A stretch of DNA of 64,000 nt. It comes from Acidobacteriota bacterium (GTDB lineage: Bacteria; Acidobacteriota; Thermoanaerobaculia; UBA5066; Gp7-AA6). The stretch spans positions 4,215 through 68,214 of the forward strand of contig JBKPBH010000027.1 of NCBI GenBank assembly GCA_046726795.1, given 5' to 3'. Below the pieces are notes generated by a model that was given only the letters and a program-made list of their open reading frames with translations, searched no databases and was not told the DNA's origin. Made by a program: the position numbers and the translations under genes. Numbering within the stretch: position 1 is the first letter of the stretch; every line of letters starts with the position of its first letter. Below, in pieces: positions 22,906-59,206 of this stretch.

Positions 22906-22972
22906 TGTTGAGTCATGAGCCGTGAGTTAGCCTTGTCTGTTTGAACTCACGACTGACGACTCCTGACTCACT
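22906..22972. repeat. Intercistronic stem-loop (dnaB-alr) with arms made of tandem heptamers
   Basis: Left arm tgttgag tcatgag ccgtgag; right arm actcacg actgacg actcctg actcact; begins 15 nt after the dnaB TAG. Confidence 0.55.
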
Positions 22973-24083
22973 CCTGTTCTCCCGTCCGACCCTCGCCGTC
23001 GTGGACCTGGGGGCCATCGCCCGCAACTACGGGCTGCTGAAGAAACGCGTGGGTGGCGCCGTGGCGGTCTTTCCCGTCGTCAAGGCGGACGCCTACGGGC
23101 ACGGGGCGGTACCGGTGGCGCGCCGGCTGACCGCGGAGGGGGCGCGGACGCTCGCCGTCGCGATCGCGGAGGAAGGGATCGCGTTGCGGCGCGCGGGCGT
23201 TGCGGGCGAGATCCTGCTGCTGAACTTTTCCGACCCGGCGGAGACCCCGCTGCTGCGAGCCTACGGCCTGACGCCGGCGCTCTATGACCTCGAGCACGCC
23301 GCCGCCTTCGCCCGTGCCGCCGCCGCTCTGCCTTCCCCGCTCCCGGTCCACGCCAAATTCGACACCGGGATGGGGCGGCTCGGGCTCGCGCCGGAGGACA
23401 CCGGCGCCCTCGCCGGTCTCTTCCGAGGTTCGCGGCTGAAGCTGGCGGGCGTCTTCGCGCAACTTTCGTCGGCCGAGGATTCCACGTCTCCCGCGACGGC
23501 GGCCCAGGTGCGGGGGCTGGCCGGCGTGGTTTCGGCCCTGCGCGGGATGGGCCTCGATCCCGGCCTCGTCCACCTCGCCAACTCCGCCGGAGTTCTCGCG
23601 CGCCCGGATTCCCACTTCGACGCGGTGCGTCCTGGCATTGCCCTCTATGGGATCCCTCCATCGCCCACGATGGAAAGAGAGGGCCTCGAACCCGCGCTGA
23701 CTCTGGAGACTCGCGTCATGTCCGTGAGACGGGTGCCCTCCGGCACGTCCCTCGGATACGGCGGAGTCTTCGTCACGCGCCGGCCTTCGACCATCGCGGT
23801 CCTTCCGATCGGCTATGATGACGGCCTTCGAAGGTCCTTCTCCGGTCGGATTTCCGTGTTGGTCGAGGGCAAGGAGGCGCCGATCGTCGCTGCGGTGAGC
23901 ATGGATCTGACGCTCGTGGACGCGACAGACTGCGGCGCCGCCCGGGGCGATCGGGTCGTGTGTCTGGGGGCGGAGGGCCGGCGTTGTGTGACCGCGTGGG
24001 ACCTCGCCCGCGCGGCCGGGACGGTCCCGTATGAGATCCTCTGCGGGATTTCCGCCCGCGTGCCCAGAAGGTATCGGGATTGA
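22941..24083 (+). CDS. alr: Alanine racemase
   Basis: PLP motif VVKADAYGHG and C-terminal domain; the ORF-track start TTG 22941 lies inside the heptamer hairpin, and the alternative start is GTG 23001 (VDLGAIARNY). Confidence 0.88.
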   Translation: MNSRLTTPDSLLFSRPTLAVVDLGAIARNYGLLKKRVGGAVAVFPVVKADAYGHGAVPVARRLTAEGARTLAVAIAEEGIALRRAGVAGEILLLNFSDPAETPLLRAYGLTPALYDLEHAAAFARAAAALPSPLPVHAKFDTGMGRLGLAPEDTGALAGLFRGSRLKLAGVFAQLSSAEDSTSPATAAQVRGLAGVVSALRGMGLDPGLVHLANSAGVLARPDSHFDAVRPGIALYGIPPSPTMEREGLEPALTLETRVMSVRRVPSGTSLGYGGVFVTRRPSTIAVLPIGYDDGLRRSFSGRISVLVEGKEAPIVAAVSMDLTLVDATDCGAARGDRVVCLGAEGRRCVTAWDLARAAGTVPYEILCGISARVPRRYRD

Positions 24084-24853
24084 CGCGCTTCCTCGAGGCG
24101 ATCGGCCGCGTCGTCCTACGGGTCTTCGAGGAGGTCGGGCACTTCTTCTCGATGCTCGGAAGCGTCGCGGCCTGGGCGGTGCGGCCTCCCTACGATGTGG
24201 CCGAGCTGTTGCGGCAGATGGTCCGCGTCGGGTACGACTCGATTCCCGTCGTCTTCGTCACGACTCTCTTCACCGGCATGGTGCTCGCGCTCCAGACCTT
24301 CAACGGCTTCGCCCGTTTCCACGCCCAGAACCTGGTCGGAAGCGTGGTGGCCCTGTCGCTGACACGGGAGCTCGCGCCGGTGCTGACCGCGCTCATGGTG
24401 ACCGGGCGCGTCGGCAGCGCGATGGCCGCGGAGCTCGGCACGATGCGGGTCACCGAGCAGATCGATGCCTTGACCTCGCTCGCCACCGAGCCGGTGCAGT
24501 ACCTGATGGTGCCGCGGGTCACGGCGTCCATCCTGATGCTCCCGCTCCTGGTCATCATGGGGGATGTCGTTGGGATCTACGGCGGCTATTTCGTGGCGGT
24601 GCAGCTGCTCGGCGCGAACCCCGTCGCCTATCTCGACAACTCCTTCCAGTACCTGCACGTGAGCGACGACGTCGTTTCGGGCGTCATCAAGGCGGCGGTC
24701 TTCGGGCTGATCTTTTCGCTGATCGCCTGTGTGCGCGGTTACTACACGGAGGGGGGCGCGGAGGGCGTGGGCCGCTCGACAACGAGGGCCGTCGTCTCCG
24801 GCAGCCTGTCGGTCCTCGTCGCGGACTTCTTCCTGACCAAGCTTCTGTATTAG
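24080..24853 (+). CDS. mlaE: MlaE-family ABC transporter permease
   Basis: Aligns with MlaE/Ttg2B (LRQMVRVGYDSIPVV...LTRELAPVLTALMVTGRVGSAMAAELGTMRVTEQIDAL); TTG start overlaps the alr stop. Confidence 0.8.
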   Translation: MTRFLEAIGRVVLRVFEEVGHFFSMLGSVAAWAVRPPYDVAELLRQMVRVGYDSIPVVFVTTLFTGMVLALQTFNGFARFHAQNLVGSVVALSLTRELAPVLTALMVTGRVGSAMAAELGTMRVTEQIDALTSLATEPVQYLMVPRVTASILMLPLLVIMGDVVGIYGGYFVAVQLLGANPVAYLDNSFQYLHVSDDVVSGVIKAAVFGLIFSLIACVRGYYTEGGAEGVGRSTTRAVVSGSLSVLVADFFLTKLLY

Positions 24854-24862
24854 GACAACGCG

Positions 24863-25672
24863 ATGGAAGGCAAGGCCTCCACGGCCCCGCGCCCCGAAGA
24901 GGCTTCCCCGAAGCTCGAGGCGGAGGATCTGCACAAGTCCTTCGGCGACAAGGTCGTGCTGGACGGCATCTCGTTCTCGGTCGCGCAAGGGGAGTCGCTC
25001 GTGATCGTTGGCCCTTCCGGCACGGGGAAGAGCGTTCTCCTGAAGCACTTGATCGGCCTGATCCGGCCCGATTCCGGGAAGGTCTTCGTCGCGGGCGAGG
25101 ACTTCTGGGCGCTGTCTCACGTCGAGCGCAACCGCGCCCGCAAGAGGTTCGGCATGTCGTTCCAGGAGGGAGCGCTCTTCGATTCGATGTCGGTCTTTGA
25201 CAACATCGCCTTTCCCCTGCGCCGATCGGGACAGCCGGCGGACCGAGTCCGCGAGCGCGTGAGGGAGTGCCTGGAGATCGTGCACCTGCCCAACGTCGAG
25301 GAGAAGCGCACGTCGGAGCTCTCCGGAGGCATGCGTCGGCGTGTCGGATTCGCGCGCGCGATCGCCCACGAGCCCGAAATCCTGCTCTTCGACGAGCCCA
25401 ACACGGGGCTCGACCCGATCATGACGGAAATCATCGACGAGGTGATTCTCGAGATGCGCGAGCGCATGAAGCCGACGATCGTGACGATCACGCACCACAT
25501 CGAAAGCGCCCGGAAAATCGGGGACCGGGTCGCCCTGCTCTTCGGGGGAAAGCTCCTCTATGACGCCCGGCCCGACGAGTTCCTCGCGGCATCGGATCCG
25601 GCCGTGCGGCAGTTCGTCGAGGGAAAATCCCAGGGTCCCCTGACGCGGGATTTCGAGGTGTCGGCGCGATGA
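24863..25672 (+). CDS. mlaF: MlaF-like ABC transporter ATP-binding protein
   Basis: Walker A GPSGTGKS, signature LSGGMRRRV, Walker B LLFDEPNTGLD. Confidence 0.85.
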   Translation: MEGKASTAPRPEEASPKLEAEDLHKSFGDKVVLDGISFSVAQGESLVIVGPSGTGKSVLLKHLIGLIRPDSGKVFVAGEDFWALSHVERNRARKRFGMSFQEGALFDSMSVFDNIAFPLRRSGQPADRVRERVRECLEIVHLPNVEEKRTSELSGGMRRRVGFARAIAHEPEILLFDEPNTGLDPIMTEIIDEVILEMRERMKPTIVTITHHIESARKIGDRVALLFGGKLLYDARPDEFLAASDPAVRQFVEGKSQGPLTRDFEVSAR

Positions 25673-25706
25673 TCGAATCCGGACGAGGTTTCCCTTCGGA
25701 GGGCGC

Positions 25707-27152
25707 ATGAACACTGCGGCGAAGGTCGGAGGGTTTTTCCTGGTGATCCTGATCCTGGCGGGTCTCCTGATCTGGAGGATCGAGGACCTGCGCTTGGGTC
25801 GGGGACCGGCCAAGAAGATCTCGGTCGAGTTCAAGGACGTGGCAGGCCTGGACGCCAAGTCCACCGTGCGCCTGGCCGGCGTCCGCGTGGGGAAGGTGGC
25901 CCGGATCCGCCTGACGTCCGACGGGCGCGCGATCGTGGACATGGACCTCGATCACGAAGTGGAGCTGCGGCGCGGAGCGTCGGCCTCAATCGCGAATCTG
26001 GGTCTGCTCGGAGAGAAGTACGTCGAGCTCGTGCCCGGGCCGGTGGGCGCGCCCGAGCTTCCCGAGGGGACGACACTCAAGGGGGACATCCCCGTCAGCT
26101 TCGACCAGATCACCAAATTGGCGAGAGACATCGAGGTGGACGTCAAGGACATCACGAAGAATCTGAGCCAGTCGCTCGGCGGGCCCCAGGGGGAGGAGCG
26201 GCTCCGCACGATCATCGACAACATCAAGATCATTACCGAGGATCTGCGCGTGATGGTCGCCTCCAACCGCGGCAACGTGGACGCGACGCTGGCGAATCTC
26301 AAGGATCTCACGGAGGGGATGACGCAACTGGTGGACCGCGTGGACAAGCTCATCGCCTCCAACTCCGCCAACGTCACGCAGGGCATCGCCAACATCAGGG
26401 ACGTCTCCGGCAAGCTCGAGACAACGGCCGAGAACCTCAACCAGATCACCGGCAAGATCAAGTCCGGGGAGGGGACTGTCGGGAAGCTCGTCGAGAGCGA
26501 GGAAACCCACAAGAACCTGAACGAGGCCCTGGTCGCGGTCAAGGAAGGGGTCGCGGGGCTGAACAAGGCCCTGGGATCGGTCGGGCGGACCCGGTTCGAC
26601 CTGGGCGTCCGTTCCGAGCTGCTGACGCGCTTCTCGAAGGGAAAGGGCTACTTTTCCCTCGACATCAATCCCCCCGAGTCCCCCCGCTTCTATCGGTTCG
26701 AGCTGTCCACGGAGCCCTTCGGGCGCCGCGTCTCCTCGACGAGCGTCGAGACGACGACCTTTCCGGACGGGCACGTCGAGGTCAAGACGACCGACACGCA
26801 GGAGTTCAAGGACGACTTCGCCATCACAGCGCTCTTCGGATACCGGTGGAGGGACTGGGGCCTGCGGGCCGGGGTCATCGAGTCCCGCGGCGGCGCGGGC
26901 CTCGACTACAAGCTCCTGAAGGACCGCCTTCGCCTCTCGGCCGACGTGTGGGACTTCACCCGCCCCGATTTTGCCGCCCATGCAAAATTCACGGGCCGCT
27001 ACTTCATCTCGCCTTCCGTCTATTTTCAGGGGGGCTGGGACGACTTCCTGAACCGCTCGCGGGCAGCCGACTCGATCTTCGTGGGGGCGGGCGTGCGCTG
27101 GACCGACGACGACATCAAGTACCTGCTCGGCTCGGTGCCCATCAAGCCGTGA
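25707..27152 (+). CDS. mlaD: MlaD/MCE-domain protein
   Basis: N-terminal TM followed by an Mce domain (KISVEFKDVAGLDAKSTVRLAGVRVGKV) and a long coiled-coil C-terminal extension. Confidence 0.75.
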   Translation: MNTAAKVGGFFLVILILAGLLIWRIEDLRLGRGPAKKISVEFKDVAGLDAKSTVRLAGVRVGKVARIRLTSDGRAIVDMDLDHEVELRRGASASIANLGLLGEKYVELVPGPVGAPELPEGTTLKGDIPVSFDQITKLARDIEVDVKDITKNLSQSLGGPQGEERLRTIIDNIKIITEDLRVMVASNRGNVDATLANLKDLTEGMTQLVDRVDKLIASNSANVTQGIANIRDVSGKLETTAENLNQITGKIKSGEGTVGKLVESEETHKNLNEALVAVKEGVAGLNKALGSVGRTRFDLGVRSELLTRFSKGKGYFSLDINPPESPRFYRFELSTEPFGRRVSSTSVETTTFPDGHVEVKTTDTQEFKDDFAITALFGYRWRDWGLRAGVIESRGGAGLDYKLLKDRLRLSADVWDFTRPDFAAHAKFTGRYFISPSVYFQGGWDDFLNRSRAADSIFVGAGVRWTDDDIKYLLGSVPIKP

Positions 27153-27240
27153 AACGTGAACCGTAAAGCGTCAAGCGTGACCCGGAGCGGCCGAGACGGG
27201 ACGGCGCTTCGTTTCGGGTTTCACGTCTAACGTCTGAGGA
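27147..27240. repeat. Stem-loop with tandem-heptamer arms between mlaD and radA
   Basis: Left arm ccgtgaa acgtgaa ccgtaaa gcgtcaa gcgtgac spans the mlaD TGA; right arm gcttcgt ttcgggt ttcacgt ctaacgt ctgagga; cgtgaaacg and cgtttcacg are complementary. Confidence 0.55.
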
Positions 27241-27247
27241 TCCGAAT

Positions 27248-28591
27248 ATGCCCCGCGCCACGACGGTTTTCGCGTGCCAGTCCTGCGGGGCTTCGTCGTC
27301 CAAGTGGCTCGGCCGCTGCCCGGACTGCGGGGAGTGGAACAGCTACGTCGAGGAGCTTCGGGCGGAGAGGGCCGCTCCGCAGGCGGCCCTCCCCGCCTCG
27401 ATGGCGCAGGTGCAGGGCGAAGCGAGCACGCGGCTGGCGACCGGCCTGCCGGGTCTCGACCGGGTGCTCGGCGGAGGACTGGTCGCGGGTTCGGTCGTTC
27501 TTCTGGGCGGCGAGCCCGGCATCGGCAAGTCCACCTTTCTCCTCCAGGCGGCCCGCGCCCTCGCGACACTGGGCGGCGATGTCCTCTACGCCACCGCGGA
27601 GGAGTCGGCGGCTCAGGTCCGGATGCGAGGCGAGCGGCTTCGCGTGCGGGAGGAGACCCTGCTGCTCGCCGCCGAAACGGACGTCGAGCGCGTCGTCGCG
27701 GCCGCCGAGCGCCGCCCGCCGGCGCTGCTGATCGTGGACTCCATCCAGGCCGTTCGAGAACCGGCTCTCTCGTCGGCGGCCGGCACAGTCACGCAGGTGC
27801 GCGAGTGCGCCTCGGTCCTGCAGCGGTTCGCCAAGACGCGAGACGTGCCGGTCATCCTGATCGGCCACGTGACCAAGGACGGCAGCCTCGCCGGTCCCAA
27901 ATCGCTCGAGCACCTCGTGGACACCGTCCTGACGCTCGAAGGGGAGAGGACCTCTCTGCGGCGCGTCCTGCGCGCCACGAAGAACCGGTTCGGGCCGGTC
28001 GAGGAGCTCGCGCTTTACGACATGACCGGGGAGGGTCTTTCCGAGATCTCCAATCCTTCGGCTGCGCTCCTGGCCGAGCGGCGGGCCGGCCTTCCGGGCA
28101 GCGCCGTGACGGCCACGCGGGAAGGGTCCCGTTGCCTTCTCGTGGAGATCCAGGCACTCGTCGGGCCGCCGGCGGCGGGCTCCCCCCGGCGTGTGGCGAT
28201 CGGTTTCGATCCCGGACGGCTCGCCCTTCTCCTGGCCGTTCTCGAAGGGTCGGGCCTGCCGCTGGCGTCCCGGGAGGTCTTCGTCTCCTGCGCGGGAGGC
28301 CTCTCCACCGCCGAGCCCGCGGCGGACCTGGCCGCGGTGGCGGCGCTGGCCTCTTCCGCCCGAGGGCGCGCCATCCCCGCGGACGTCGTCTGCTTCGGCG
28401 AAATCGGATTGCTCGGCGAAGTTCGTCGAGTTCCGGCGGCCAGCTCCCGTCTGAAGGAGGCCGTGGCCATGGGCTTTCAAACAGTTTACCTGCCCTCCGG
28501 AGACGCGGCGGAAGCCGGGCGCTTTCAGGATCTCGCGATCCGCCCCGTCGAGCGGGTCAGGGACTTCGTCCAGGAGATTTGTGATTTGTGA
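27248..28591 (+). CDS. radA: DNA repair protein RadA/Sms
   Basis: N-terminal Zn ribbon CQSCGASSSKWLGRCPDCGEW, RecA-like Walker A GEPGIGKST, KNRFG motif, Lon-like C-terminus. Confidence 0.95.
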   Translation: MPRATTVFACQSCGASSSKWLGRCPDCGEWNSYVEELRAERAAPQAALPASMAQVQGEASTRLATGLPGLDRVLGGGLVAGSVVLLGGEPGIGKSTFLLQAARALATLGGDVLYATAEESAAQVRMRGERLRVREETLLLAAETDVERVVAAAERRPPALLIVDSIQAVREPALSSAAGTVTQVRECASVLQRFAKTRDVPVILIGHVTKDGSLAGPKSLEHLVDTVLTLEGERTSLRRVLRATKNRFGPVEELALYDMTGEGLSEISNPSAALLAERRAGLPGSAVTATREGSRCLLVEIQALVGPPAAGSPRRVAIGFDPGRLALLLAVLEGSGLPLASREVFVSCAGGLSTAEPAADLAAVAALASSARGRAIPADVVCFGEIGLLGEVRRVPAASSRLKEAVAMGFQTVYLPSGDAAEAGRFQDLAIRPVERVRDFVQEICDL

Positions 28592-28659
28592 TTGTTGATT
28601 TGTGATTTGTGATCAGGGCAGCAAGCGTCGCTTCGCCCCCTCACTCATCACAAATCACC
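28576..28659. repeat. Tandem heptamer array (GATTTGT x5) spanning the radA stop codon, with a downstream inverted copy
   Basis: gatttgt gatttgt gattgtt gatttgt gatttgt encodes the last radA codons (ICDL*); atcacaaatcac at 28647-28658 is the reverse complement of gtgatttgtgat at 28581-28592 (12 bp stem). Confidence 0.6.
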
Positions 28660-28673
28660 TCGCCGATTGTCCA

Positions 28674-29255: not shown

Positions 29256-29329
29256 TTTTCTGGAGCCGGATAGCCTGGCGCCCGGCCCCGCCCGAGGGCG
29301 AGGACCGGGCGCAGGAGTCCTGTTTGGAT

Positions 29330-29983: not shown

Positions 29984-30115
29984 GGTCTCTCCTTCCTGTG
30001 AGGGCGACGCCCAAAAAGCGACGCCGAGGAGAGGCGAAGCAAATGCCGGGCCAATATCAACGGGACGGCCCAGGTTTCAAGGTCCAAGCCTCGAGGGGCC
30101 CGAAGCTTGAGCCTT

Positions 30116-31003: not shown

Positions 31004-31092
31004 CGGGAGGGTGACATTAGCATGAAGACGCCCCGGGGTTGAGAGTGGAGGGCTACCAAGAGCGACGCCCGGCTCTGGTATCGTTTCGCGCG

Positions 31093-32556: not shown

Positions 32557-32619
32557 GATTTGAGGAGTGGAGCGTCGCGGGTTGTGTCCGCGGCTCCCGC
32601 CGGCTGCTTCCCGACTCGA

Positions 32620-33975
32620 CTAACCTCGGGCGGGCGGGGGCCTCAGGAGGGCGGCGACCGGGATCGAGCGGGCGCCGTTCTTTCCGACCGCGCGGATCGC
32701 GAAGAAGTGGTTGTCCGTCGAGACTCCCTTGAGGATGTTCTCTCCCGCAGAGGCAACGAAATCATAGACCGACCAGCGCGGCTCGGTCGTCTCGCGCCAG
32801 AGGATCTCGAAGCCTTCGCGCTCACCGTCCTCCTCGGCCGACCACGCGATTTTCGCGTCCGGCGTGACGCCGCCGGCGATTGTGACGTCTCTGGGCGCGG
32901 CCGGCGCCAGGGCGAGCTGGCGCAGCGTCTCGGCGTTGGCTCGCGCGACGTGGCCGAGGAATTCGAAGCTCAAGAACTGGAGGAGGTCGCCGTACTGCCG
33001 CCCGTTCTCCACGCGCGGCGTCTGGTGCTCGTGGTCGTAGTTCTCGAGCGGCTCGGTGAACCGCACGGCCGGAAGACCCGCCTCCACAAAGGGGCGGTGG
33101 TCTCCTGCGCGCCCCAACCGGTCGAGGCGGAAGACCAGACGGACGGCGTCGCGACCGGCCACCTCTTCGACGGCCCGCGCAAGATCCCGCGAGGGGGAGT
33201 CCACCCCGTCCGGGCCTCCTCCCGAGAAGACGCGCACGCGGTGCGGACCACCCGGCGCGGTGTCCGCGCCGACGATGTCGTTGTTTAGCAGGCCGCCGAT
33301 CGTGTAACCCTTCTCCTTCAGGTACTCGAGCAGCCGCTTGCCGCCGAGGAGCCCCTGTTCCTCCCCCGAGACCGCGGCGAACAGGAGGCTCGCCCGGTAG
33401 GTTCCGCCAGACAACAGCCGCGCGCATTCGATCGAGACCGCCGTGCCCGAGGCGTCGTCGTCGGCTCCCGGCGCGTCGGCCTCGGGATCCATGATGGAGG
33501 ACGGCATCGAATCAAAATGGCCGGAGACGACGTAGACGGTCTTCGCGAGTTTCGGATCGCTCCCCGGCAGGAACGCCAGCACGTTCTCCAGCCGCGCCGC
33601 CTTGTCGCGCGTGCGCGGGGCCGTCGCCTCGAATCGGTCTACGACGACGGTCAGTCTACCGCCCGACGATTTCGCAATCTGGGTGAGGCGCGCGAGGATT
33701 TTGTCGCGCCCGCAGCCGATGCCGCGCCGTGGATCGTCCCAGGATGAGAGCGAGTGCCGCGTTCCGCAGGAGACGAGATCCTCGATCGTGGCCCGGAGCG
33801 ATTTCTCGTCCACCGCCTTGCGGGAGATCGCCCCGACGGGAGGAGGCGGCGATTTCGGCCGCGGCCGGGCCGTCGTCGGCTCGGCGGGGTCCTGTGCCGC
33901 GAGAGCGCCGGCCGCCAGACACGCCGCCGCCGCGAGTTTGACTGCCAGGAATCGCTTTGTTAGGTTCGCGCTCAC
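32620..33975 (-). CDS. M28 family Zn aminopeptidase, secreted
   Basis: Signal peptide VSANLTKRFLAVKLAAAACLAAGALAAQ; M28 motifs HFDS, DDDASG, SGEEQGLLG, followed by a C-terminal beta-sandwich. Start is GTG 33975 with SD ggag; the upstream 470 codons of the ORF were judged spurious. Confidence 0.75.
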   Translation of the reverse strand: MSANLTKRFLAVKLAAAACLAAGALAAQDPAEPTTARPRPKSPPPPVGAISRKAVDEKSLRATIEDLVSCGTRHSLSSWDDPRRGIGCGRDKILARLTQIAKSSGGRLTVVVDRFEATAPRTRDKAARLENVLAFLPGSDPKLAKTVYVVSGHFDSMPSSIMDPEADAPGADDDASGTAVSIECARLLSGGTYRASLLFAAVSGEEQGLLGGKRLLEYLKEKGYTIGGLLNNDIVGADTAPGGPHRVRVFSGGGPDGVDSPSRDLARAVEEVAGRDAVRLVFRLDRLGRAGDHRPFVEAGLPAVRFTEPLENYDHEHQTPRVENGRQYGDLLQFLSFEFLGHVARANAETLRQLALAPAAPRDVTIAGGVTPDAKIAWSAEEDGEREGFEILWRETTEPRWSVYDFVASAGENILKGVSTDNHFFAIRAVGKNGARSIPVAALLRPPPARG

Positions 33976-34761
33976 ATGCCACTCCGCGAGTTTCGGATCG
34001 GTCCGGTCGGGGAGGAAGTCTATCCTCGCTTCGTCGCGGAGCTCGCCGAGCGGTTCGACGACCCCGCCCTCGACCGCAACCTCGTCGCGCGCGACACGCT
34101 CTGCCAGCTCTATCTGGGCCGTCCTTTCGGGGAAGGAGCGCTGACGGATCGCCGTCTCCCGATCGAGACGAAGTCCCTGCTCGCGAGCCTGGACCCGCGC
34201 AACGCAACGCTCGAGGCGGAGTACTACCGGGAGATCGACCTCGCGAAGTGGGCGAAGGTCAAGCCACTTCTCTGGTTCTGGCAGATGTTCGATCACTCTC
34301 CCGTCGGACGAAACGTGCGTCTGGGCACCCAGGTCCGGGCAATGCTCGCGCAACGCGTCTTCAGGCGCTGCGGCAAGAGCGTCCGGATCTTCCACGGCGT
34401 CGAATTCTCCTTCGGCTACAACCTCTCCGTCGGCGACAGCGTGACAATCCACCGAAACGTCCTGATCGACGACCGGGGCGAGGTCGTTCTCGGAAACGAG
34501 GTCTCGATCTCCGATTACGCCAACATCTATTCCCATTCCCATTCGGTCGAGGACATCCACGACGTGACGCTCGGCCGGACGGTCATCGGCGACCGCGCGC
34601 GGATCACCTACCACGCCGTCGTGCTGTCCGGAGTCACGATCGAAGCCGATGCGCTGGTCGGCTCCATGGGCGTGGCCTCCAAGCCCGTCCCAGCCGGAGT
34701 CATCGCCGCCGGCATCCCCGCCAGGCCCATCGGACAGAAGAAGACCCGCCCCCCGGCCTGA
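33976..34761 (+). CDS. Hexapeptide-repeat (LbH) sugar O-acetyltransferase, WcaF/CapG-like
   Basis: LWFWQ...RIFHGVEFSFGYNLSVGDSVTIH...SHSHS...hexapeptide repeats through ...AAGIPARPI; the only in-frame start upstream of the conserved LWFW motif is ATG 33976. Confidence 0.68.
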   Translation: MPLREFRIGPVGEEVYPRFVAELAERFDDPALDRNLVARDTLCQLYLGRPFGEGALTDRRLPIETKSLLASLDPRNATLEAEYYREIDLAKWAKVKPLLWFWQMFDHSPVGRNVRLGTQVRAMLAQRVFRRCGKSVRIFHGVEFSFGYNLSVGDSVTIHRNVLIDDRGEVVLGNEVSISDYANIYSHSHSVEDIHDVTLGRTVIGDRARITYHAVVLSGVTIEADALVGSMGVASKPVPAGVIAAGIPARPIGQKKTRPPA

Positions 34762-34936
34762 CCCCGCAGGGACGATTCCGGGTCGCTTCCACGTGTCGTC
34801 CGGACCGACGACGGCACCGCAGGGGCCGGATCGAACGGACGCAACGGCCTGTCGGCCAAGCCCCGTCACGATCACGCCTCGAGGCTCGCGGCTCGGCGGC
34901 CGCCCGGGCACCCGGCGCCCTGAGATAATTCCGCCC

Positions 34937-44826: not shown

Positions 44827-44838
44827 GACGGCGAGAGC

Positions 44839-44938
44839 GGCTGGGCGACTGGGCGACTGGGGGACTGGGGGACTGGGAGAAAACTTGAAAGCAGCACCGG
44901 CCTCTCTCCCAGTCTCCCCGTCTCCCAGTCCCCCAGTC
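44839..44938. repeat. Stem-loop with tandem octamer arms (GACTGGGN x5 and YCCCAGTC x4)
   Basis: ggctgggc gactgggc gactgggg gactgggg gactggga ...spacer... tcccagtc tccccgtc tcccagtc ccccagtc; begins 12 nt after the HD-GYP TGA. Confidence 0.65.
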
Positions 44939-44944
44939 CGCTGT

Positions 44945-45697
44945 TTGTTCGCCGTGCTGGCTCTCATTGCGATAATTCCCTTTGCCGGCGCATGCTCGTC
45001 GCAAAGGAAGGCGCAGACCTCGACCGAGCTGCTCTTGAACGAACGGATGGCCGCCGTTCTGCTGCGGGAGGGACGCGCGCGCGAGGCGGAAGACGCTTAT
45101 CGCGATGTGCTGCGCTCGGATCCGAAGAAGCCCGACCTCCATGACGGGCTGGGCCTCTGCCTGCTCGCGCAGGGGAAGCTGCGCGAGTCGCTCGACTCCT
45201 TTGACCGAGCCGTCAAACTCGACGCCGAGAAAGCGCTCTACCGGATCCACCGCGGAATGGCTCGCACGCAGCTCGGCCGGTACGGGGAGGCCGAGGAAGA
45301 CTTCCGCGTCGCGGAGAGATCTCCGGCACCCGAGGACCAGCTCGACCTGGCGTTGAACCGCGGCCGGATGCGACTTCGGATGGGAGACGACGCAGCGGCC
45401 GAGGCCCAGTTCTCCGTCGCGCTCTCTCGGGAACCCAAGTCCATGGACGCGCTGCTCGGGCGGGGCATGGCCCGCGAATCGCGCAAGGACTTCGCGGCGG
45501 CCGCCGAGGACTACCTGGAGGCCGTTCGCCTGCAGCCCAGGAGTCCGGAGGCGAATCTGCACCTGGGTCTGGCGCTCGTGACCCTGAAGAAAACGGCGCT
45601 CGGCCGCCGATACCTCGAGCGCACCGTGGAACTCGACCCCACCGGCGCCGCCGGCGCGAAGGCTCGCCTCCTGCTCGAGAACGGTCCGCCGAGCTAG
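44945..45697 (+). CDS. TPR-repeat lipoprotein
   Basis: Lipobox FAGAC followed by four to five TPR repeats. Start TTG 44945 or GTG 44954; an upstream in-frame TTG at 44885 would make the right repeat arm code SPSPSPP. Confidence 0.6.
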   Translation: MFAVLALIAIIPFAGACSSQRKAQTSTELLLNERMAAVLLREGRAREAEDAYRDVLRSDPKKPDLHDGLGLCLLAQGKLRESLDSFDRAVKLDAEKALYRIHRGMARTQLGRYGEAEEDFRVAERSPAPEDQLDLALNRGRMRLRMGDDAAAEAQFSVALSREPKSMDALLGRGMARESRKDFAAAAEDYLEAVRLQPRSPEANLHLGLALVTLKKTALGRRYLERTVELDPTGAAGAKARLLLENGPPS

Positions 45698-47945: not shown

Positions 47946-47999
47946 TCACCGATCTGCCGGTCTCCCCATCTCTCAGTCTCCCAGTCGTTGACCGGCAGA
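47883..47999. repeat. Second, degenerate copy of the GACTGGG/CCCAGTC element plus a 10 bp stem hairpin downstream of ribD
   Basis: gggggactgggcgactcc lies inside the ribD 3' end and shares the 12-mer gactgggcgact with 44847-44858. The hairpin tctgccggtc...gaccggcaga (47953-47999) has a loop containing tctcccagtc, identical to 44921-44930. Confidence 0.55.
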
Positions 48000-50800: not shown

Positions 50801-50852
50801 GCCCGAGCATAGAATTTCGCCTTCGTCCGGGAAGAACCGAAAGGAGACTGTT

Positions 50853-51488: not shown

Positions 51489-51490
51489 GA

Positions 51491-51518
51491 GTCGATCGTC
51501 GACAGTCGATGGTCGAAA
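51491..51518 (+). repeat. Tandem heptamer array (GTCGANN x4) immediately after the stop codon
   Basis: gtcgatc gtcgaca gtcgatg gtcgaaa starts 3 nt after the TAG at 51486-51488. Confidence 0.55.
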
Positions 51519-51526
51519 GTTCCGCG

Positions 51527-51560
51527 AAAAAGAAAGGCCTGGCTCGCGCCGGGCTTTTTC
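51527..51560. terminator. Bidirectional intrinsic terminator between the secreted-protein gene and hppA
   Basis: aaaaagaaa-GGCCTGGC-tcgc-GCCGGGC-ttttt; 7 bp GC stem with one G.U pair, flanked by A- and T-tracts. Confidence 0.65.
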
Positions 51561-51595
51561 ATGTCTTACTTTCCTCCGCGTCTCCGCGTCTCGTT

Positions 51596-53764
<2,169 letters not shown>

Positions 53765-53810
53765 CTCTTGGAGTGATTCCGTTTCCGCTTGGGCGGGACG
53801 ATATCAAAGT

Positions 53811-53897
53811 ATTTTGGATTCTGGATTTTGGATCTTGGATTGCGACAGGAGATCCCGGCTCAATCCAAAATCTAAAATCGAGAATCTAAGATCGTGC
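53811..53897. repeat. AT-rich stem-loop with tandem heptamer arms between exbD (3' end) and hppA (5' end)
   Basis: ttttgga ttctgga ttttgga tcttgga ...aggagatcccggc... tccaaaa tctaaaa tcgagaa tctaaga; the right arm ends at the exbD stop codon. Confidence 0.6.
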
Positions 53898-54310: not shown

Positions 54311-54371
54311 GCCGAGTTTCTCCTTGGGCGGGCGTTGCTGGTTGCGGGGACAGTCAGAATCCCTGCGAACG

Positions 54372-54809: not shown

Positions 54810-54830
54810 GGCCGGTCCTCCCCGGGTCCC

Positions 54831-55535: not shown

Positions 55536-55621
55536 GAAGCGCTCCTTCTCGTTCTCCTTGTTCTCAAGCCGTCCAGGCTTCCGGGCTCCATCTCCCCGGC
55601 GACCCGGCAACCCCCCTCATC

Positions 55622-56356
55622 CTAGTGCAAGTTGAACGTCACGGTCACGGTCAGGTACACGCGCACCGCCCTCCCGTTGAGGGTGGCGGGCTTGTATCTC
55701 CATTGCTGCACCGCGCGGACCGCGGAGGCATCCAGCAGCGGATTGACGGACTTCAAGACCTTCACGTCCTCGACGCTGCCGGAAGCCGTGATGATGGCCT
55801 CCAGGATGACGACGCCTTCCATCCGGGCCTTGCGCGCCGCCTCGGGATAGGTCGGCTCGACGCGGTTGGTCAGGACGGGGGCCTTGACCTCGCCTCCGAC
55901 TCGAAGCGGCTCGCCTTCGCCCGTGCCGGGTCCCGTGCCGCCCGGCACTCCGCCCAGGACGCCGCCCGGCACCCCGCCTTCGACGCCGCCCGGGACGCCG
56001 CCTTCCACCCCGGCCGGCGCCTCCGGCTCGGGCGCGGAGAGCGGCTTGGGGATGTTCTCGGGAATGATGGTCGGCGCCACCATCTCCGTCGGCCGGACCG
56101 GCACCTGCTTCTGGACCTCGGGCGCCTTGGGCTTGGGCGCCGGGGCAGCCGCCGGGGGCGGGGGGGGTGGGGGGGGGGCCGAGGCGTAGAAGGTGACCGG
56201 AATCGGAGGCTCCGGCACGTCTTCGACGAACCAGATCGAGGCGCCGAGCGCGATGCCGATGACGATCGCGTGGATGGCGATCGACACGGGCAGGGTCACG
56301 GCCTTGCGCGAATCCCCCTTGTGAGGAGCCGATTCGATCAGCGACTCTTCGAACAT
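55622..56356 (-). CDS. tonB: Energy transducer TonB
   Basis: N-terminal TM, Pro-rich spacer (PPPPPPPPAAAPAPKPKAPE) and TonB C-terminal domain. Confidence 0.8.
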   Translation of the reverse strand: MFEESLIESAPHKGDSRKAVTLPVSIAIHAIVIGIALGASIWFVEDVPEPPIPVTFYASAPPPPPPPPAAAPAPKPKAPEVQKQVPVRPTEMVAPTIIPENIPKPLSAPEPEAPAGVEGGVPGGVEGGVPGGVLGGVPGGTGPGTGEGEPLRVGGEVKAPVLTNRVEPTYPEAARKARMEGVVILEAIITASGSVEDVKVLKSVNPLLDASAVRAVQQWRYKPATLNGRAVRVYLTVTVTFNLH

Positions 56357-56385
56357 GCTTGTCCTCCAGACCCCTCAGGACACCG

Positions 56386-57219
56386 TTACTTCTTAGCCGG
56401 TTCCGGCGTCGGAGTCGTGGCGAGACTCTTCTTACGCAATTCGAGTGCCTGCTCGCGGTACTTGTCGGCGGTCGCGATGTCCTCCTGCTTCTTGGCGTCG
56501 TCGGTCTCGATCTTTGCCCGCTCGCGGTAGAGCAGGTTCATGTACGTCAGGGCGTCGAAGTTGTCCGGCTTGATCTTCAGGGCAGTCTGCAGGGCGTTCA
56601 TGCCTTCGTCGATGATCTTGGCGCGCGTGGCCGGGTCGATCTCGGGGAAGTGATAGGAGCGGTCCCAGGCCTGAACTCCCACCATGACGTAGGGCTCGGG
56701 GTTGTTGGGCTCCAGGGCCGCCCGCTTCTTCTCCCACTCGAGGCCCTGGTTGAAGTCCCCCTTCTTGAAGTACATGGCCGCGACCGACGTCATGGCCTTG
56801 ACGTCGTTGGGGTCCTTCTTCAGGAGGTCCTGGTAGAAGAGGATGGCATCGTCGTAGCGGTCGATCGCCAGGTACATGGAGACAAGGAACTCCCGGACCT
56901 TCTTGTCAGTGGGGTAGTCTTTGAGGTACGTCTGCAGCTCCTGGATCGCCTTGTTAGCGAACTCGAGGTCCTTGGGGTGCCTGGACCCGGGCTGGTACAG
57001 GGCCATGTAGGTCTCGCCAATGAACTTGTGGAGCTTCGTCTCGCCCGGGTCCAAACGCAGCGCCTCCTGGTAGTTGGCCAGCGCGGCCTGATACTGCGTC
57101 GCCTTGAAGAACTCGTTGCCCTTCTTGATCTCCTGCCGGGCCTTGATCTTGTTGCAGCCCGACAGCCCCGCAGCCGCCATCAGAAGAATGGCCGCCGCGG
57201 CCAGACGTGGACTCCGCAT
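56386..57219 (-). CDS. TPR-repeat lipoprotein, first gene of the exbBD-tonB operon
   Basis: Lipobox LSGC followed by TPR repeats. Confidence 0.7.
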   Translation of the reverse strand: MRSPRLAAAAILLMAAAGLSGCNKIKARQEIKKGNEFFKATQYQAALANYQEALRLDPGETKLHKFIGETYMALYQPGSRHPKDLEFANKAIQELQTYLKDYPTDKKVREFLVSMYLAIDRYDDAILFYQDLLKKDPNDVKAMTSVAAMYFKKGDFNQGLEWEKKRAALEPNNPEPYVMVGVQAWDRSYHFPEIDPATRAKIIDEGMNALQTALKIKPDNFDALTYMNLLYRERAKIETDDAKKQEDIATADKYREQALELRKKSLATTPTPEPAKK

Positions 57220-57424
57220 TCTTCGGTTGCTCCTTCTCTCGTGTTGTCAACCGGGAGGCCCGTCCCGGAGGGCGGAATTCTGTTGAATTCTCTCCGACAA
57301 AGCAACAGTGTTTTTCGAGACATCCGGGTGCTTCTGGCCGGTCGCCGGAGGCGGCCCGATCGTCGCAGGAAACGCGGGGAATATTCCGGCGCGGCAGGAG
57401 TTTGCGTTGACTTCAGGAGGACTC

Positions 57425-59131
57425 TTGAAAAGACCCCGACTCCTTGCCGCGGCGCTCCTGTTCGCGGCGCCGCTCCTGGCCCAGAAACCCCCCGAGCCGG
57501 CCCAGAAGCCCCCCTCGTCCGCGGACAAGCCGCTGCCGCCCGTCAGCGAGAGGGTCGAGGTCGCGGTCACCAACGTCGAGGTCGTCGTCACCGACTCGAA
57601 GGGGAAACGAGTCCCTGGCCTGACCCGCGATGACTTCGAGGTCTGGCAGGACGGCACGCCGCAGAAGATCACGAACTTCTACGCGGTGTCGGGAGGCAAG
57701 GTCCTCCTCGACGATGGCAAAGTCGTCGCCCTGGATTCCCCGGCGGCCTCCGCGGAGATCCCGGTCGACCTGAAGGCCCGCTACATCCTCTTCATCGACA
57801 ACCTGAACATCCAGCCCCAGAACCGCAACCGGATGTTCAAGCGTCTCGAGGAGTTCGTGCAGCAGACGATCGGCCCGCGCGCCGAGGCGATGGTCGTGAC
57901 CTACAACCGATCCCTGAAGACCCGGCGCAAGTTCACCTCCGAGCCGAGCGAGGTCGTGGCCGCGCTCGACGAGATCGAGAAGGAGACGGGCGGCGGCACC
58001 ACGCTCGTCTCCGAGCGGCGCGACGCCCTCCACCAGATCGACGAGTCGACCAACGCCGGCTCCGCTTTGACCATCGCGCGCAGCTACAGCCGCTCGCTGC
58101 GCAACGATCTCCTGTTCCTCGTGGACGCGTTGAAGAACACGATGAACAGCCTTGCGGGAATCGAGGGGCGCAAGATCCTGGTCTACGTCTCCGAGGGGAT
58201 TCCCTCGACGGCCGGGCTCGAGCTCTTCGATCAGATCCAGCGGAAGTTCCGGGACCAAGCCGGCACTTCGACGCTCGAGCAGTTCGAGTTCGACATGAAC
58301 GCGAAATACGCCGGCATCATCCAGTCGGCCAACGCGCAGGGGGTCACGATCTGGGCGCTCGATGCGTCGGGCCTGACGACCGAACAGCTCACCTCCGCGG
58401 AGAACCGGTCCTTCGAGACGCGCCCCAACGACTTCGTCCTGCGCCAGAACACGCAGGCGCCGCTGCAGCTCATGGCGGACCAGACCGGCGGCATGGCCGC
58501 CATCAACACCAATGACTGGAAGAAGAGCTTGGACGAGCTGTCCTCGGACTTCTCCAACTTCTACTCGATCGGCTACCGCACGACCCGCTCGGCGGTGGAC
58601 CGCCCGCACTCCGTCGAGGTGCGGGTCAAGCGCAAGGGCCTGACCGTCCGCGCGCGCAAGGGGTTCCTCGAGAAGACGGTCGAGACGAAGACAGCCGAGG
58701 GAGTCCTGGCGAGCCTCTTCTACCCGCGGGACGACAATCCTCTCGCCATCAGCGTCTCCGTCGGCGCGCAGCGCCCCTACGACCAGGAGAACTTCGCCCT
58801 ACCCGTCCGTATCGCCGTCCCGATCGGCAAGCTCGGCCTCGTGCCGACCGGCGACCACTACGAGGCGACCTTCTTCGTCTACGTGGTGGCCCGGGACAAC
58901 TCGGAAAAGCAGTCGGACCTGGCGGTCCAGCGTCAGGTTGTGACGGTCCCCGCCAAGGAGCTCGACAAGGCGCAGCGCAAGGACTGGTACTACGACTTCA
59001 CGATGACCGTGGCGCCCGGCGCCCAGCGAGTGGCTTTCGCCGTCCGGGACGGAATCTCGAACCAGGTCTCTTATTACCAGAAGAACCTGTTCATCTCGCT
59101 CCTCCCGAAGGAGACCAAAGCCAAGAGTTGA
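57425..59131 (+). CDS. Secreted von Willebrand factor A (VWA) domain protein
   Basis: SD aggagg + TTG 57425 gives signal peptide MKRPRLLAAALLFAAPLLAQ; VWA fold with MIDAS-like residues (ILFIDNLN...S..G.T). Confidence 0.7.
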   Translation: MKRPRLLAAALLFAAPLLAQKPPEPAQKPPSSADKPLPPVSERVEVAVTNVEVVVTDSKGKRVPGLTRDDFEVWQDGTPQKITNFYAVSGGKVLLDDGKVVALDSPAASAEIPVDLKARYILFIDNLNIQPQNRNRMFKRLEEFVQQTIGPRAEAMVVTYNRSLKTRRKFTSEPSEVVAALDEIEKETGGGTTLVSERRDALHQIDESTNAGSALTIARSYSRSLRNDLLFLVDALKNTMNSLAGIEGRKILVYVSEGIPSTAGLELFDQIQRKFRDQAGTSTLEQFEFDMNAKYAGIIQSANAQGVTIWALDASGLTTEQLTSAENRSFETRPNDFVLRQNTQAPLQLMADQTGGMAAINTNDWKKSLDELSSDFSNFYSIGYRTTRSAVDRPHSVEVRVKRKGLTVRARKGFLEKTVETKTAEGVLASLFYPRDDNPLAISVSVGAQRPYDQENFALPVRIAVPIGKLGLVPTGDHYEATFFVYVVARDNSEKQSDLAVQRQVVTVPAKELDKAQRKDWYYDFTMTVAPGAQRVAFAVRDGISNQVSYYQKNLFISLLPKETKAKS

Positions 59132-59206
59132 GAGTTGAGGCTTGAGAGTCGAGAAGGGAGAGGAACCCGGGAGCCCTCTCTTGACTCTCGACTCTCAACT
59201 CTGAAC
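59125..59206. repeat. Stem-loop with tandem heptamer arms spanning the VWA stop codon
   Basis: gagttga gagttga ggcttga gagtcga gaaggga gaggaac ...cccgggagcc... tcttgac tctcgac tctcaac tctgaac; the TGA at 59129-59131 lies inside the first unit. Confidence 0.6.

Follow-up and report, generated by a model that had tools for sequence, protein, structure and literature searches.

The window analysed here is a 64-kb stretch of acidobacterial DNA, the host of which is a soil bacterium. A first-pass annotation had claimed tandem 7/8-mers at 22906 (S1), 27147 (S2), 28576 (S3), 44839 (S4), 51491 (S5), 53811 (S6) and 59125 (S7), and arrays were indeed found at all seven positions, with two additional sites at 14522-14590 (S8) and 47960-47986 (S9). 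All nine follow the 3' end of a gene, seven in co-directional and two in convergent gaps, and the divergent gaps of the window (1,444 nt) contain no array. The arrays are real and well beyond chance expectation. Intergenic DNA makes up 3,966 nt, or 6.2% of the window, and instead of being equally frequent inside genes, a possibility that the annotation had raised against itself, all nine non-redundant period-7 arrays reported by TRF are intergenic and none is coding. The chance value for 7/8-mer arrays of at least three copies was 0.025 in dinucleotide shuffles of the intergenic DNA, and whole-window shuffles gave 0.69 such arrays compared with 13 observed.

At S8, a CCGAGAA array of 3.4 copies (14567-14590) lies 10 nt from the stop codon of a minus-strand ABC-2 permease gene and is paired with a G-rich arm, GGTGCTCGGTTTTCGGTCGAGGG (14522-14544; TTCTCGG unit). 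The 5' arm of S1, three TGAGNNN units (TGAGTCA TGAGCCG TGAGTTA, 22909-22929), begins 18 nt past the dnaB stop codon (TAG, 22889-22891); its 3' arm is an inverted array of 3.9 ACTCACG-type heptamers with 70% matches (22945-22971) which may overlap the 5' end of alr. The S2 array (CGTGAAN, 4.7 copies, 27148-27180) spans the mlaD stop codon at 27150-27152, and a degenerate complementary arm (27206-27235) is found upstream of the radA start at 27248. S3 begins with 5.4 copies of GATTTGT (28576-28613), the first two of which specify the RadA C-terminus ICDL plus the stop codon, in agreement with the earlier statement that this array encodes the last codons of radA. A G+C-rich core CAGGGCAGCAAGCGTCGCTTCGCCCC and a short 3' arm ATCACAAATCAC of about two units follow (28614-28666).

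The S4 unit is an octamer, given as GACTGGGG, with 5.1 copies of GCGACTGG/GGGACTGG in the 5' arm (44837-44877) and 4.2 copies of TCTCCCAG in the 3' arm (44905-44938). The unit of this 3' arm is also that of S9 in the ribD-ribE gap (47954-47998), where 3.4 unpaired copies of GTCTCCCA (47960-47986) lie within a loop closed by the 9-bp stem CTGCCGGTC/GACCGGCAG. S5 lies between convergent genes and consists of 4.4 copies of the self-complementary GTCGANN (51490-51520) immediately 3' of the stop codon of a DUF4412 gene, followed by a core (51533-51560) that is a canonical intrinsic terminator, AAAGGCCTGGC-TCGC-GCCGGGCTTTTT, with G+C hairpin and T-tract, and by 2.4 copies of the octamer CTCCGCGT (51574-51592) adjoining the H+-PPase stop codon. 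S6 combines 4.4 ATTTTGG-type heptamers (TTTTGGA type, 53811-53841) with 4.6 complementary units of the AATCTAA type (53862-53893) that end 4 nt from the stop codon of a minus-strand exbD. Finally, the upstream 607-aa gene has its stop codon (59129-59131) inside the 5' arm of S7 (AGAGTTG, 4.4 copies, GAGTYGA, 59124-59154), and the 3' arm of S7 (CTCTCGA type, 3.6 copies, 59178-59209) ends 6 nt short of the probable DUF2064 start ATG at 59216. At S2, S3 and S7 the first array units are at the same time native gene ends, many units have variable positions next to a conserved core (GTCGANN, TGAGNNN, CGTNAAN), and most sites have neither unit nor core in common. The single architecture of array, spacer and inverted array proposed earlier is therefore only partly borne out: the arrays are present at all seven sites, but in this genome S5 carries no reverse-complement partner array, the arms of S3 are unequal (5.4 units left, about two right) and the hairpin is uneven.

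When each site was compared with 200 shuffles, RNA folding was strong at S4 (z -6.1, with a whole-hairpin MFE of -69.7 kcal/mol), S6 (z -6.0) and S7 (z -5.2), moderate at S8 (z -3.0), S3 (z -2.8) and S5 (z -2.6), and not beyond shuffles at S1 (z -1.1) and S2 (z +0.15), so that the hairpins that had been claimed stand at three sites strongly and at three moderately but not at 22906 and 27147. Folding is about as good for the antisense as for the sense RNA, no G-U asymmetry marking the transcribed strand was seen, the GATTTGT family gives weak covariation support (12 pairs, covariation term +0.31) and Rfam gave no family match for the elements. The elements are probably transcribed, since their position is invariably 3' of a gene, in many cases within probable operons, and, with the exception of S5, they carry no T-tracts.

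The elements probably do not act as terminators. They share with intrinsic terminators the stem-loop past the stop codon, but their stems (25-40 bp) and loops (20-30 nt) differ, a T-tract is absent at the eight sites other than S5 and several hairpins are found inside probable operons. The earlier statements that no site has a U-tract and that the pattern is not that of an intrinsic terminator thus apply to these eight sites and fail at the S5 core. Factor-independent terminators of a U-tract-less type in a high-G+C lineage would explain why all sites are downstream of stop codons, why the stems of S4, S6 and S7 are very stable and why the S5 arrays flank a real terminator. We consider this quite improbable, however, because S4 and S9 lie within operons, the flanking genes overlapping or being 10 nt apart in relatives, and because the same gene junctions in relatives have no hairpins. 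In addition, intrinsic termination by mycobacterial RNA polymerase in vitro depends on a U-tract, which counts against such a type as do the large loops.

A scan of 2.3 Mb from several phyla gave inverted array pairs for just two periods, 7 (10 pairs) and 8 (3 pairs), with none for periods 5, 6 and 9-12. In the 5' arms G exceeds C in 27 cases and C exceeds G in 2, with 3 ties (27/29 informative), whereas plain hairpins have no polarity (450 vs 435). Slippage alone accounts for neither the limit to units of 7-8 nt nor the polarity. Certain unit motifs recur across phyla, namely GATT (15 units, 4.8 expected) and CAGT (9 units, 3.4 expected), and GGA and GATT are common in 5' arms. The last observation, together with the conserved cores and variable positions of the units and the four or more G-runs of S4, might point to binding-site arrays for an RNA- or DNA-binding protein, or to G-quadruplex regulatory elements. 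Such functions have been put forward for related repeats, with the proteins S1, Csp or CsrA as binders in the case of the TAACTGA repeats (PMC4679880). Yet a single sequence-specific protein could hardly bind units that vary so much from site to site, the motifs are base-paired within the stem and only S4 is capable of forming a G-quadruplex, making this explanation very improbable.

Syntenic metagenome relatives reveal how the arrays change. The strain L081 is 98% identical to the window (9,435 nt aligned, 189 mismatches) and differs by only three indels: one of +7 nt in the S3 array, one of 12 nt in the S2 array and a single base elsewhere. The S3 arrays are exactly one GATTTGT unit apart (6.4 copies in L081, 5.4 in the window), and the S2 array is 12 nt shorter in the strain, which is not a multiple of the unit. 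The left array of S5 has 4 copies in the window, 4 in L090 and 6 in L166 (GTCRACA in the latter two); in L090 the terminator stands between complementary arrays, GTCGACA in four and TGTCGAC in three copies, the latter at the place of the CTCCGCGT array of the window, and in L166 the right array is missing altogether, so that the left one is unpaired. At S6 both arms differ (TGGATTT in the window, GTGATTT in L090, L166 and L167) while the inner ends are still homologous. The arrays are hot spots of indels, gaining and losing units; the two arms vary independently in copy number and yet drift together in sequence, and such concerted evolution is one reason for the locus-specific units.

The presence of whole elements varies among genomes with 86–94% protein identity. 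L085 lacks S2 and S3 and has gaps of 17 nt in their place, S7 is missing in L090, S9 is missing in L166 and L167, with a ribD-ribE gap of only 10 nt in relatives, and S4 is missing in L166, L167 and L169 and degenerate in L171. S4 is a 118-nt palindrome, inserted where these relatives have a 4-nt GTGA stop/start overlap, an insertion which local slippage could hardly produce. S7, S9, S3, S2 and an exbD-exbD hairpin are likewise clean insertions into gaps of 4–20 nt. Whole elements thus come and go between genomes, even within former stop/start overlaps. Moreover, the S3 arms and core (GATCAGGGCAG.AAGCG..TTCGCC) recur at two non-orthologous loci in close relatives, an insert in L083 and the GATTTGT-type element of L167, L166 and L090 at the S6 position, of which the window S6 is the diverged ortholog. 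Some sites are therefore dispersed copies; at least one type forms a dispersed family, dispersal being evident for this family only. The earlier assertion that the sites are not copies of one mobile element cannot be upheld in this form, as S4 and S9 also share a unit.

These data raise the possibility of non-autonomous mobile elements (MITE/REPIN-like), for which the gene of a transposase or HUH/Y1 nuclease would lie outside the window. The heptamer arrays would be the subterminal binding or cleavage repeats of this enzyme, and several old families, together with local homogenisation, would have produced the unit diversity. Such elements would agree with the three non-orthologous loci at which close relatives carry the homologous element, core included, with the clean inserts, with the density of about 12 arrays per 64 kb in the window vs 0–2 per 14–22 kb in relatives and with the motifs recurring across phyla, and the uniform polarity could come from a common ancestor. 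However, S4, S9 and S3 show no target-site duplication, the 64-kb window holds no transposase, RAYT or other mobilising gene, unit and core are mostly not shared between its sites, the differing copy numbers of the arms and the single-unit changes are slippage behaviour, and some arrays are unpaired (S9; S5 in L166). We regard this as the best placed of the alternatives, but still as doubtful.

Next in rank, and unlikely, is a neutral by-product, in which a short intergenic hairpin such as a terminator stem had its 7–8-nt stem halves each amplified by slippage, loops of this size evading mismatch repair, with neither mobility nor function. Slippage of heptamers has been hypothesised in the literature, the indels are confined to arrays and of single units, arms are unequal (S3; S5 in L166, 6 vs 0), each locus has its own unit and the first units are native gene ends at S2, S3 and S7. 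Left unexplained are the common core at non-orthologous loci, the large palindrome within a 4-nt overlap, the 27:2 G-first polarity not seen in plain hairpins and the missing periods. The polarity is exactly that expected of break-repair scars, for which a short G-rich unit would be synthesised over and over at both 3' ends of a double-strand break before the ends are joined head-to-head as in telomere fusion, with the G-rich strands running 5'->3' toward the centre; the 7–8-nt periods and G/T-rich units resemble telomeric repeats and the window contains a family-X polymerase gene. Nevertheless, a conserved G+C hairpin or terminator occupies the centre, where a junction would be expected, the exclusive placement behind stop codons and the dispersed family with its common core are unexplained and, to our knowledge, Xanthomonas and Nostoc are not known for such a polymerase, so that this is the least probable explanation of all.

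Although the sites had been described as fitting no known pattern, heptamers by stop codons, including convergent pairs, have already been published (Rehm 2015; Mrazek 2007; STRR), and the hairpins described here are a variant of this repeat class known from Xanthomonas and cyanobacteria. Heptanucleotide repeats are, according to Mrazek (2007) as cited in PMC4679880, the commonest 5–11-nt SSR class in most genomes. Xanthomonas has 70–75 convergent GGGAATC pairs per genome, mostly 0–50 bp from or overlapping stop codons (PMC4692102). As in the window, Xanthomonas GGGAATC and Nostoc GGGGA(C/T)T (Rehm et al. 2015, PMC4692102) are tandem intergenic heptamers, seldom found in coding sequence or in divergent gaps and variable in length and sequence between close species, and the Xanthomonas pairs could fold into stem-loops. 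The S4 unit GACTGGGG equals the Nostoc-type GGGGACT plus one base. Those genomes, however, have essentially one unit genome-wide as against at least six unit types in 64 kb here, the G-quadruplex explanation of the authors suits only S4, and their report makes no mention of the anatomy of core hairpin plus arms, the polarity rule across units or the dispersal of cores (PMC4692102).

Heterocystous cyanobacteria carry short tandemly repeated repetitive (STRR) heptamers (Mazel et al. 1990, as cited in PMC4692102), which are likewise heptanucleotide tandem arrays in non-coding DNA. They belong to another phylum with another G+C content, and the arrays here are typically paired as hairpin arms. S4 corresponds to the reverse complement of STRR1 (CCCCAGT) plus C, and the S5 unit of L166, AGTCAAC, is a rotation of STRR3 (CAACAGT); these are likenesses of sequence, which may reflect either homology or convergence.

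REP, BIME and REPIN elements are also imperfect palindromes outside genes, and their transcription, at the 3' end of a message or between two cistrons, is what the present elements would undergo; they too have dispersed copies that are present or absent among relatives, and the RNA stem-loops of REP protect the upstream mRNA. The elements here have neither a conserved 20–40-nt REP sequence nor a GTAG-type head, and their arms are slipping tandem 7–8-mers; the distinction from REP/BIME drawn in the first-pass annotation is confirmed in that no common 20–40-nt palindrome exists among the sites.

Taken together, we favour, with a probability of about 0.55, the interpretation that the elements are intergenic heptanucleotide tandem repeats (LSSR/STRR class) in a convergent-pair form, which grow by slippage, spread by copy-and-paste and have a REP-like RNA role. 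Each would be an imperfect palindrome immediately 3' of a stop codon, with a short G+C-rich core hairpin (at S5 a genuine intrinsic terminator) whose stem has been lengthened outward by tandem 7- or 8-nt units, G-rich in the 5' arm and C-rich in the 3' arm. Units would be gained through slipped-strand mispairing in replication and new copies would arise from some copy-and-paste process. The most likely role, if there is any at all, is probably that of a REP-like RNA stem-loop, which might serve as a barrier to 3' exonucleases or as a processing or insulating structure, and the G-rich-first order may hide C-rich, Rho-attracting RNA until the partner strand is made.

The TAACTGA repeats of Beggiatoaceae, cyanobacteria and Bacteroidetes (MacGregor 2015, PMC4679880) are similar intergenic heptamer arrays with a patchy distribution across phyla, but they lie mostly just upstream of start codons and are almost never inverted (169 direct sets vs 1 indirect). 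The units GACAACT/CAACTGA of L001 and L020 are related to them.

By a gene map derived from codon usage, checked with Pfam and compared with the gene calls of syntenic relatives, every array lies directly 3' of a stop codon. The window has a G+C content of 67.7%, and among species representatives the closest matches to its RadA come from Thermoanaerobaculia MAGs (Acidobacteriota), with 72% and 71% identity. The first-pass annotation had described at least seven stop-codon-adjacent stem-loops with tandem repeats as arms, and direct reading as well as Tandem Repeats Finder (TRF) confirmed tandem heptamers (octamers at 44839) at all seven. In detail, S1 (22906) lies at the junction of DnaB and Alr, S2 (27147; unit CGTGAAN) at that of MlaD and RadA, S3 (28576; GATTTGT) between the convergent genes of RadA and a sortase, S4 (44839) between a HAMP/HD-GYP gene and that of a TPR lipoprotein, S5 (51491; GTCGANN type) between the convergent genes of a DUF4412 protein and the H+-PPase, S6 (53811; TTTTGGA type) where ExbD is followed by the H+-PPase on the minus strand, and S7 (59125; GAGTYGA) between a 607-aa protein without assigned identity and DUF2064. 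Two further sites of like make-up were added: S8 (14522-14590), which lies behind an ABC-2 permease gene, and S9 (47960-47986), an unpaired octamer array between ribD and ribE in the loop of a 9-bp stem.

TRF reported 13 arrays in the window as against 0.69 in shuffled whole windows; shuffles of the intergenic DNA gave 0.025. A chance origin is ruled out by these shuffles. Of the nine non-redundant period-7 arrays every one falls in intergenic DNA, which amounts to 3,966 nt or 6.2% of the window, and coding sequence has none; arrays are thus not equally frequent inside genes, the outcome that had been named as fatal to the initial observation, which therefore stands. Seven of the nine sites are in co-directional gaps, two in convergent and none in divergent ones (1,444 nt in total). 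Head-to-tail 7-nt (here also 8-nt) copies in runs longer than chance and confinement to non-coding DNA, two of the marks of LSSR/STRR repeats, are therefore both found. An assembly artefact is ruled out by the presence of the same elements in the independent assemblies of five relatives (L081, L090, L166, L167 and L171). The arrays are real and strongly non-random, but they had been overstated at three sites.

Folding energies were compared with those of 200 dinucleotide shuffles. Folding was exceptional at S4 (z -6.1), S6 (z -6.0) and S7 (z -5.2), moderate at S8 (z -3.0), S3 (z -2.8) and S5 (z -2.6) and not distinguishable from shuffles at S9 (z -1.7), S1 (z -1.1) and S2 (z +0.15), so that the hairpins proposed for the seven sites hold strongly for three and moderately for S3 and S5 but not for S1 and S2. 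The arms of S3 are unequal, with 5.4 versus about 2 units. At S5 the window contains no inverted array, contrary to the initial description, and the unit itself contains the palindrome GTCGAC; a textbook G+C hairpin plus T-tract comes after the array, at 51533-51560. The statement that none of the sites has a U-tract is thus wrong at S5, whose core (51541-51555) is also the sole match among the sites to an intrinsic terminator, i.e. a G+C-rich stem with a 3-8 nt loop and a T-tract. As no heptamer hairpin was flagged as such, the view that these are not ordinary terminators was borne out.

Plus- and minus-strand RNA folding energies differed inconsistently, and G-U versus A-C mismatches were uninformative on the strand of action. 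Sense and antisense folds are equally good, and the structures are therefore not yet tied to RNA rather than DNA. Covariation within the GATTTGT family was weak, since the alignment is made ambiguous by the register of the repeats. A stop codon in each unit, such that three units provide stops in all three frames, was found in five of the eight sense-strand 5' arms of the window; by eye, however, many units at other loci have no stop codon.

The suggestion that these structures fit no known pattern has to be given up, since both heptamer repeats and convergent pairs of them have been published (PMC4692102; PMC4679880). Heptanucleotide repeats are the commonest class of 5-11-nt repeats in most genomes (Mrazek et al. 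2007, cited after MacGregor 2015, PMC4679880), and the same study is said there to have suggested a connection with how long a piece of DNA the polymerase holds. In Xanthomonas, GGGAATC repeats are intergenic, under-represented between divergent genes and form 70-75 convergent pairs per genome, which are potential stem-loops and vary between close species (Rehm et al. 2015, PMC4692102). The window sites resemble these pairs in that opposite-strand arrays of one unit lie close together near stop codons and rarely between divergent genes. They differ in that Xanthomonas uses one dominant, G-quadruplex-capable G-tract unit genome-wide, whereas six or more types of unit are present in the 64 kb studied here and only S4, with at least four runs of three or more G, has such potential. 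Regulatory effects of heptamer repeats near promoters are described in a Nostoc preprint.

REP, BIME and REPIN elements are many copies of a conserved 20-40-nt imperfect palindrome with a likewise conserved 5' tetranucleotide, which is not the case here; all-against-all blastn detected no sequence common to the sites except within the S3 family, in agreement with the initial exclusion of REP/BIME. Known RNA families are ruled out, as no Rfam 15 family matched at its gathering threshold; at E<=1 only sub-threshold miRNA-precursor matches were obtained, on S4 and S6, both generic long hairpins. The S4 unit differs from the reverse-complemented STRR1 unit of cyanobacteria by one additional base, and the S5 unit in L166 is a rotation of STRR3. 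The literature covered offers no established function or mechanism for heptanucleotide repeats, and no account of many units per genome, of arms around a core, of a polarity rule, of inverted pairs restricted to periods 7 and 8 or of core spread. The hairpins hence belong to a known but unexplained repeat class, to which the rules and the evolutionary series described here are added.

Syntenic contigs were retrieved via homologs of RadA, the H+-PPase and HD-GYP, and together with the window they constitute a natural time series of gain, loss, single-unit slippage, concerted change of two arms and core spread. In the alignment with L081 (9,435 nt, 189 mismatches) there are three indels only: in L081, S3 is longer by 7 nt, precisely one GATTTGT unit, the S2 array is shorter by 12 nt, and a single base is inserted or lost elsewhere. 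The only multi-base indels in 9.4 kb thus fall into two arrays, which amounts to copy-number polymorphism between close strains, a further mark of LSSR/STRR repeats. The left array of S5 counts six units in L166 as against four in both the window and L090. In L090 (PPase 94% identical) the terminator hairpin of S5 lies between GTCGACA x4 and TGTCGAC x3, a layout in which, it is concluded, the arrays prolong a core stem outwards. L166 has the left array alone, and in the window CTCCGCGT x2.4 takes the place of the right arm; the arms therefore grow and decay independently.

Whole elements also come and go. L085 (RadA 92%) is without S2 and S3, both gaps being 17 nt, S7 is missing from L090, and S9 is missing from L166 and L167, both of which have a 10-nt gap at that place. 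The position of S2 is occupied in L082 by a different hairpin (GGGAGAC x3 / GTCTTCC x4). The clearest case of gain or loss is S4, a 118-nt palindrome at a junction where the genes of L166, L167 and L169 (HD-GYP 87-89%) overlap by GTGA with zero intergenic DNA; L171 (HD-GYP 92%) contains a degenerate homolog whose right half matches at 27 of 34 positions in a manual alignment. The native C-termini (IKP*, AEAL*, APKN*, VPIQ*, PLFI*) are kept, and changes are limited to the last one or two codons at S3 (ICDL vs ICGL) and S7 (KS* vs KG*), two sites at which the coding sequence runs into the first repeat units. Both arms of S6 are of the TGGATTT type in the window as against the GTGATTT type in L090, L166 and L167, while their inner ends are homologous (GATTGCGACAGG vs GATTACGACG), a pattern of concerted evolution as read from these sequences. 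The comparison thus showed that the elements are unstable palindromes which gain and lose units, change their arms in concert and turn over rapidly.

The TPR-lipoprotein frame is open across the whole S4 hairpin (44885-44945), with a TTG at 44885 in the loop, a Shine-Dalgarno-like GGGAGA before it and a putative signal peptide with K/R residues (MKAAPASLPVSPSPSPPVRCLFAV...AGAC). As judged from this arrangement, the insertion may have supplied a new start and N-terminus of the lipoprotein after destroying the ancestral start in the GTGA overlap. Such elements change where genes start and end (the lipoprotein start and the radA C-terminus being cases in point) and mislead gene callers. In L167 a TGGACCT x5.9 array (5281-5321) between the Sua5 and hexapeptide-transferase genes has been called within the downstream ORF; the same junction in the window is a 38-nt gap with no array.

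The S3 element including its core (GATCAGGGCAGCAAGCG..TTCGCC) matches the one that L167 carries at S6 (a 24-nt seed containing one mismatch; E 2e-4 in 2.4 Mb) and is alignable to it end to end; it also matches an insert in L083, in a gap that is empty in the window, L081 and L082. At least the GATTTGT type is therefore a dispersed family, S3 is a distant paralog of S6 in the window, and these matches showed that one family has spread to different loci. The earlier conclusion that the sites are not copies of one mobile element, or of one another, does not survive the recurrence of this core at non-orthologous loci. S4 and S9 have a common unit; GGGAGAC-type units occur at S4, S9 and in L082 and L171, and GAGTC-type units at S1, S5, S7 and in L082 and L083, but within these two types only units and no common core were detected. 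Of the features of MITEs, inverted arms are present and dispersed copies were found for the S3 type. No target-site duplications were seen at S3, S4 and S9, and the Pfam-checked gene map of the 64-kb window contains no mobilising gene, including RAYT (Y1 transposase), the gene associated with REP-type elements.

Units would be added by slipped-strand mispairing. Mismatch repair is efficient on loops of 1-3 nt (PMC4060949), and loops of 7-8 nt may escape it. If each element homogenises its own arms and several founding families exist, each locus would come to have its own unit. The elements are probably tolerated only 3' of genes. Four or five elements are placed within probable operons, most clearly S4 and S9, where the genes of the relatives overlap or nearly abut. 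This placement, together with the lack of a T-tract, would make transcription termination by the elements unlikely. The best fit is either a REP-like function as an RNA stem-loop (a barrier to exonucleases, a site for RNase III or an insulator between cistrons) or the lack of any function.

The wider survey comprised 166 sequences (2.3 Mb) from many phyla, and arrays were carried by Pyrinomonadaceae, other Acidobacteriota, Nitrospirota, Nitrospinota and Bacteroidota. Inverted TRF array pairs numbered ten at period 7 and three at period 8, with none among the 247 arrays whose period was 5, 6 or 9-12; same-strand pairs were absent from the entire set. Among hairpins with at least one 7/8-mer array as arm, the 5' arm had G>C in 27 of 32, C>G in two and a tie in three, a polarity that is valid on either strand since the structures are palindromes, whereas 1,057 plain hairpins with stems of 10 bp or more, from the same G+C-rich loci, had no such bias (450 vs 435). 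GATT/AATC occurs in 15 of 78 distinct units versus 4.8 expected (z 5.2) and CAGT/ACTG in nine versus 3.4, both figures being inflated by related loci. The units are not arbitrary.

The polarity could be selected, as a C-rich arm in first position would expose a Rho-loading site before its partner arm, or it could equally come from a common ancestor or from the mechanism of synthesis. A far-reaching reading, which we consider unlikely, is that tandem-arm hairpins form one cross-phylum class of self-propagating palindromic elements, made and moved by a dedicated machine (nuclease, transposase or polymerase) that measures about 7 nt. It would embrace the Acidobacteriota, Nitrospirota, Nitrospinota and Bacteroidota of this survey and, from the literature, Xanthomonas and cyanobacteria, with period 7 or 8 only, the G-rich arm first, a position behind stop codons and recurrent GATTGGN and CAGT motifs as its rules. 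If true, such a machine would explain the STRR repeats, the function of which is still called unknown in the literature; should the polarity reflect Rho avoidance or a dedicated enzyme, a neglected repeat class would be linked to transcription or genome maintenance. The rules are directly testable: inverted pairs of periods 7 and 8 only, the G-rich arm first, a location always 3' of a gene and arrays that can flank a terminator.

Hairpins of other kinds were also observed. A near-perfect 125-nt hairpin at 2682-2806 (MFE -63.8 kcal/mol with 10-nt flanks), between the convergent genes of a 4Fe-4S protein and a molybdopterin oxidoreductase, contains TTGTCATTCTGAGCGAAGCGAAGAATCTG with an exact 27-nt match in the unrelated MAG contig L070 and is a dispersed repeat of a different kind. 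The 61-nt gap between two exbD genes (54311-54371) holds a stable hairpin (GCGGGGACAGTCAGAATCCCTGC); with gaps of 4 nt in L090 and 2 nt in L166, it is another recent hairpin insertion, without tandem units. A G+C-rich hairpin at 29256-29329 (GGCGCCCGGCCCCGCCCGAGGGCGAGGACCGGGCGC) is 89-97% identical across L081-L085 and thus stable over relatives, in contrast to the rapid turnover of the heptamer hairpins. The A+T-rich hairpin at 13340-13399 (49% G+C with flanks), between convergent genes, has a perfect 10-bp stem (CCTTATTTAT...ATAAATAAGG) and a composition unlike the remainder of the window.

A family-X DNA polymerase of 878 aa (18314-20950, minus strand; HHH_8, Pol beta thumb and PHP domains) has an N-terminal extension of about 290 aa without Pfam match; nothing was seen that ties this gene to the repeats. 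The 640-nt gap in the gene map at 34297-34936 is probably not intergenic, since the annotation of relatives has a hexapeptide-repeat protein ahead of the SMC_N/AAA_23 gene and a plus-strand ORF is present at 33976-34761; this casts doubt on the intergenic status of a period-7 TRF hit at 34878. At 33568, within a predicted minus-strand coding region (32620-34296), the window and L081 differ by a 1-base indel, which reflects a frameshift or else faulty assembly of one or the other record. Finally, repeats of period 12/24/36 and a G-run of about 25 nt at 55937-56018 and 56154-56178, inside the minus-strand TonB gene, probably encode the proline-rich spacer of TonB.
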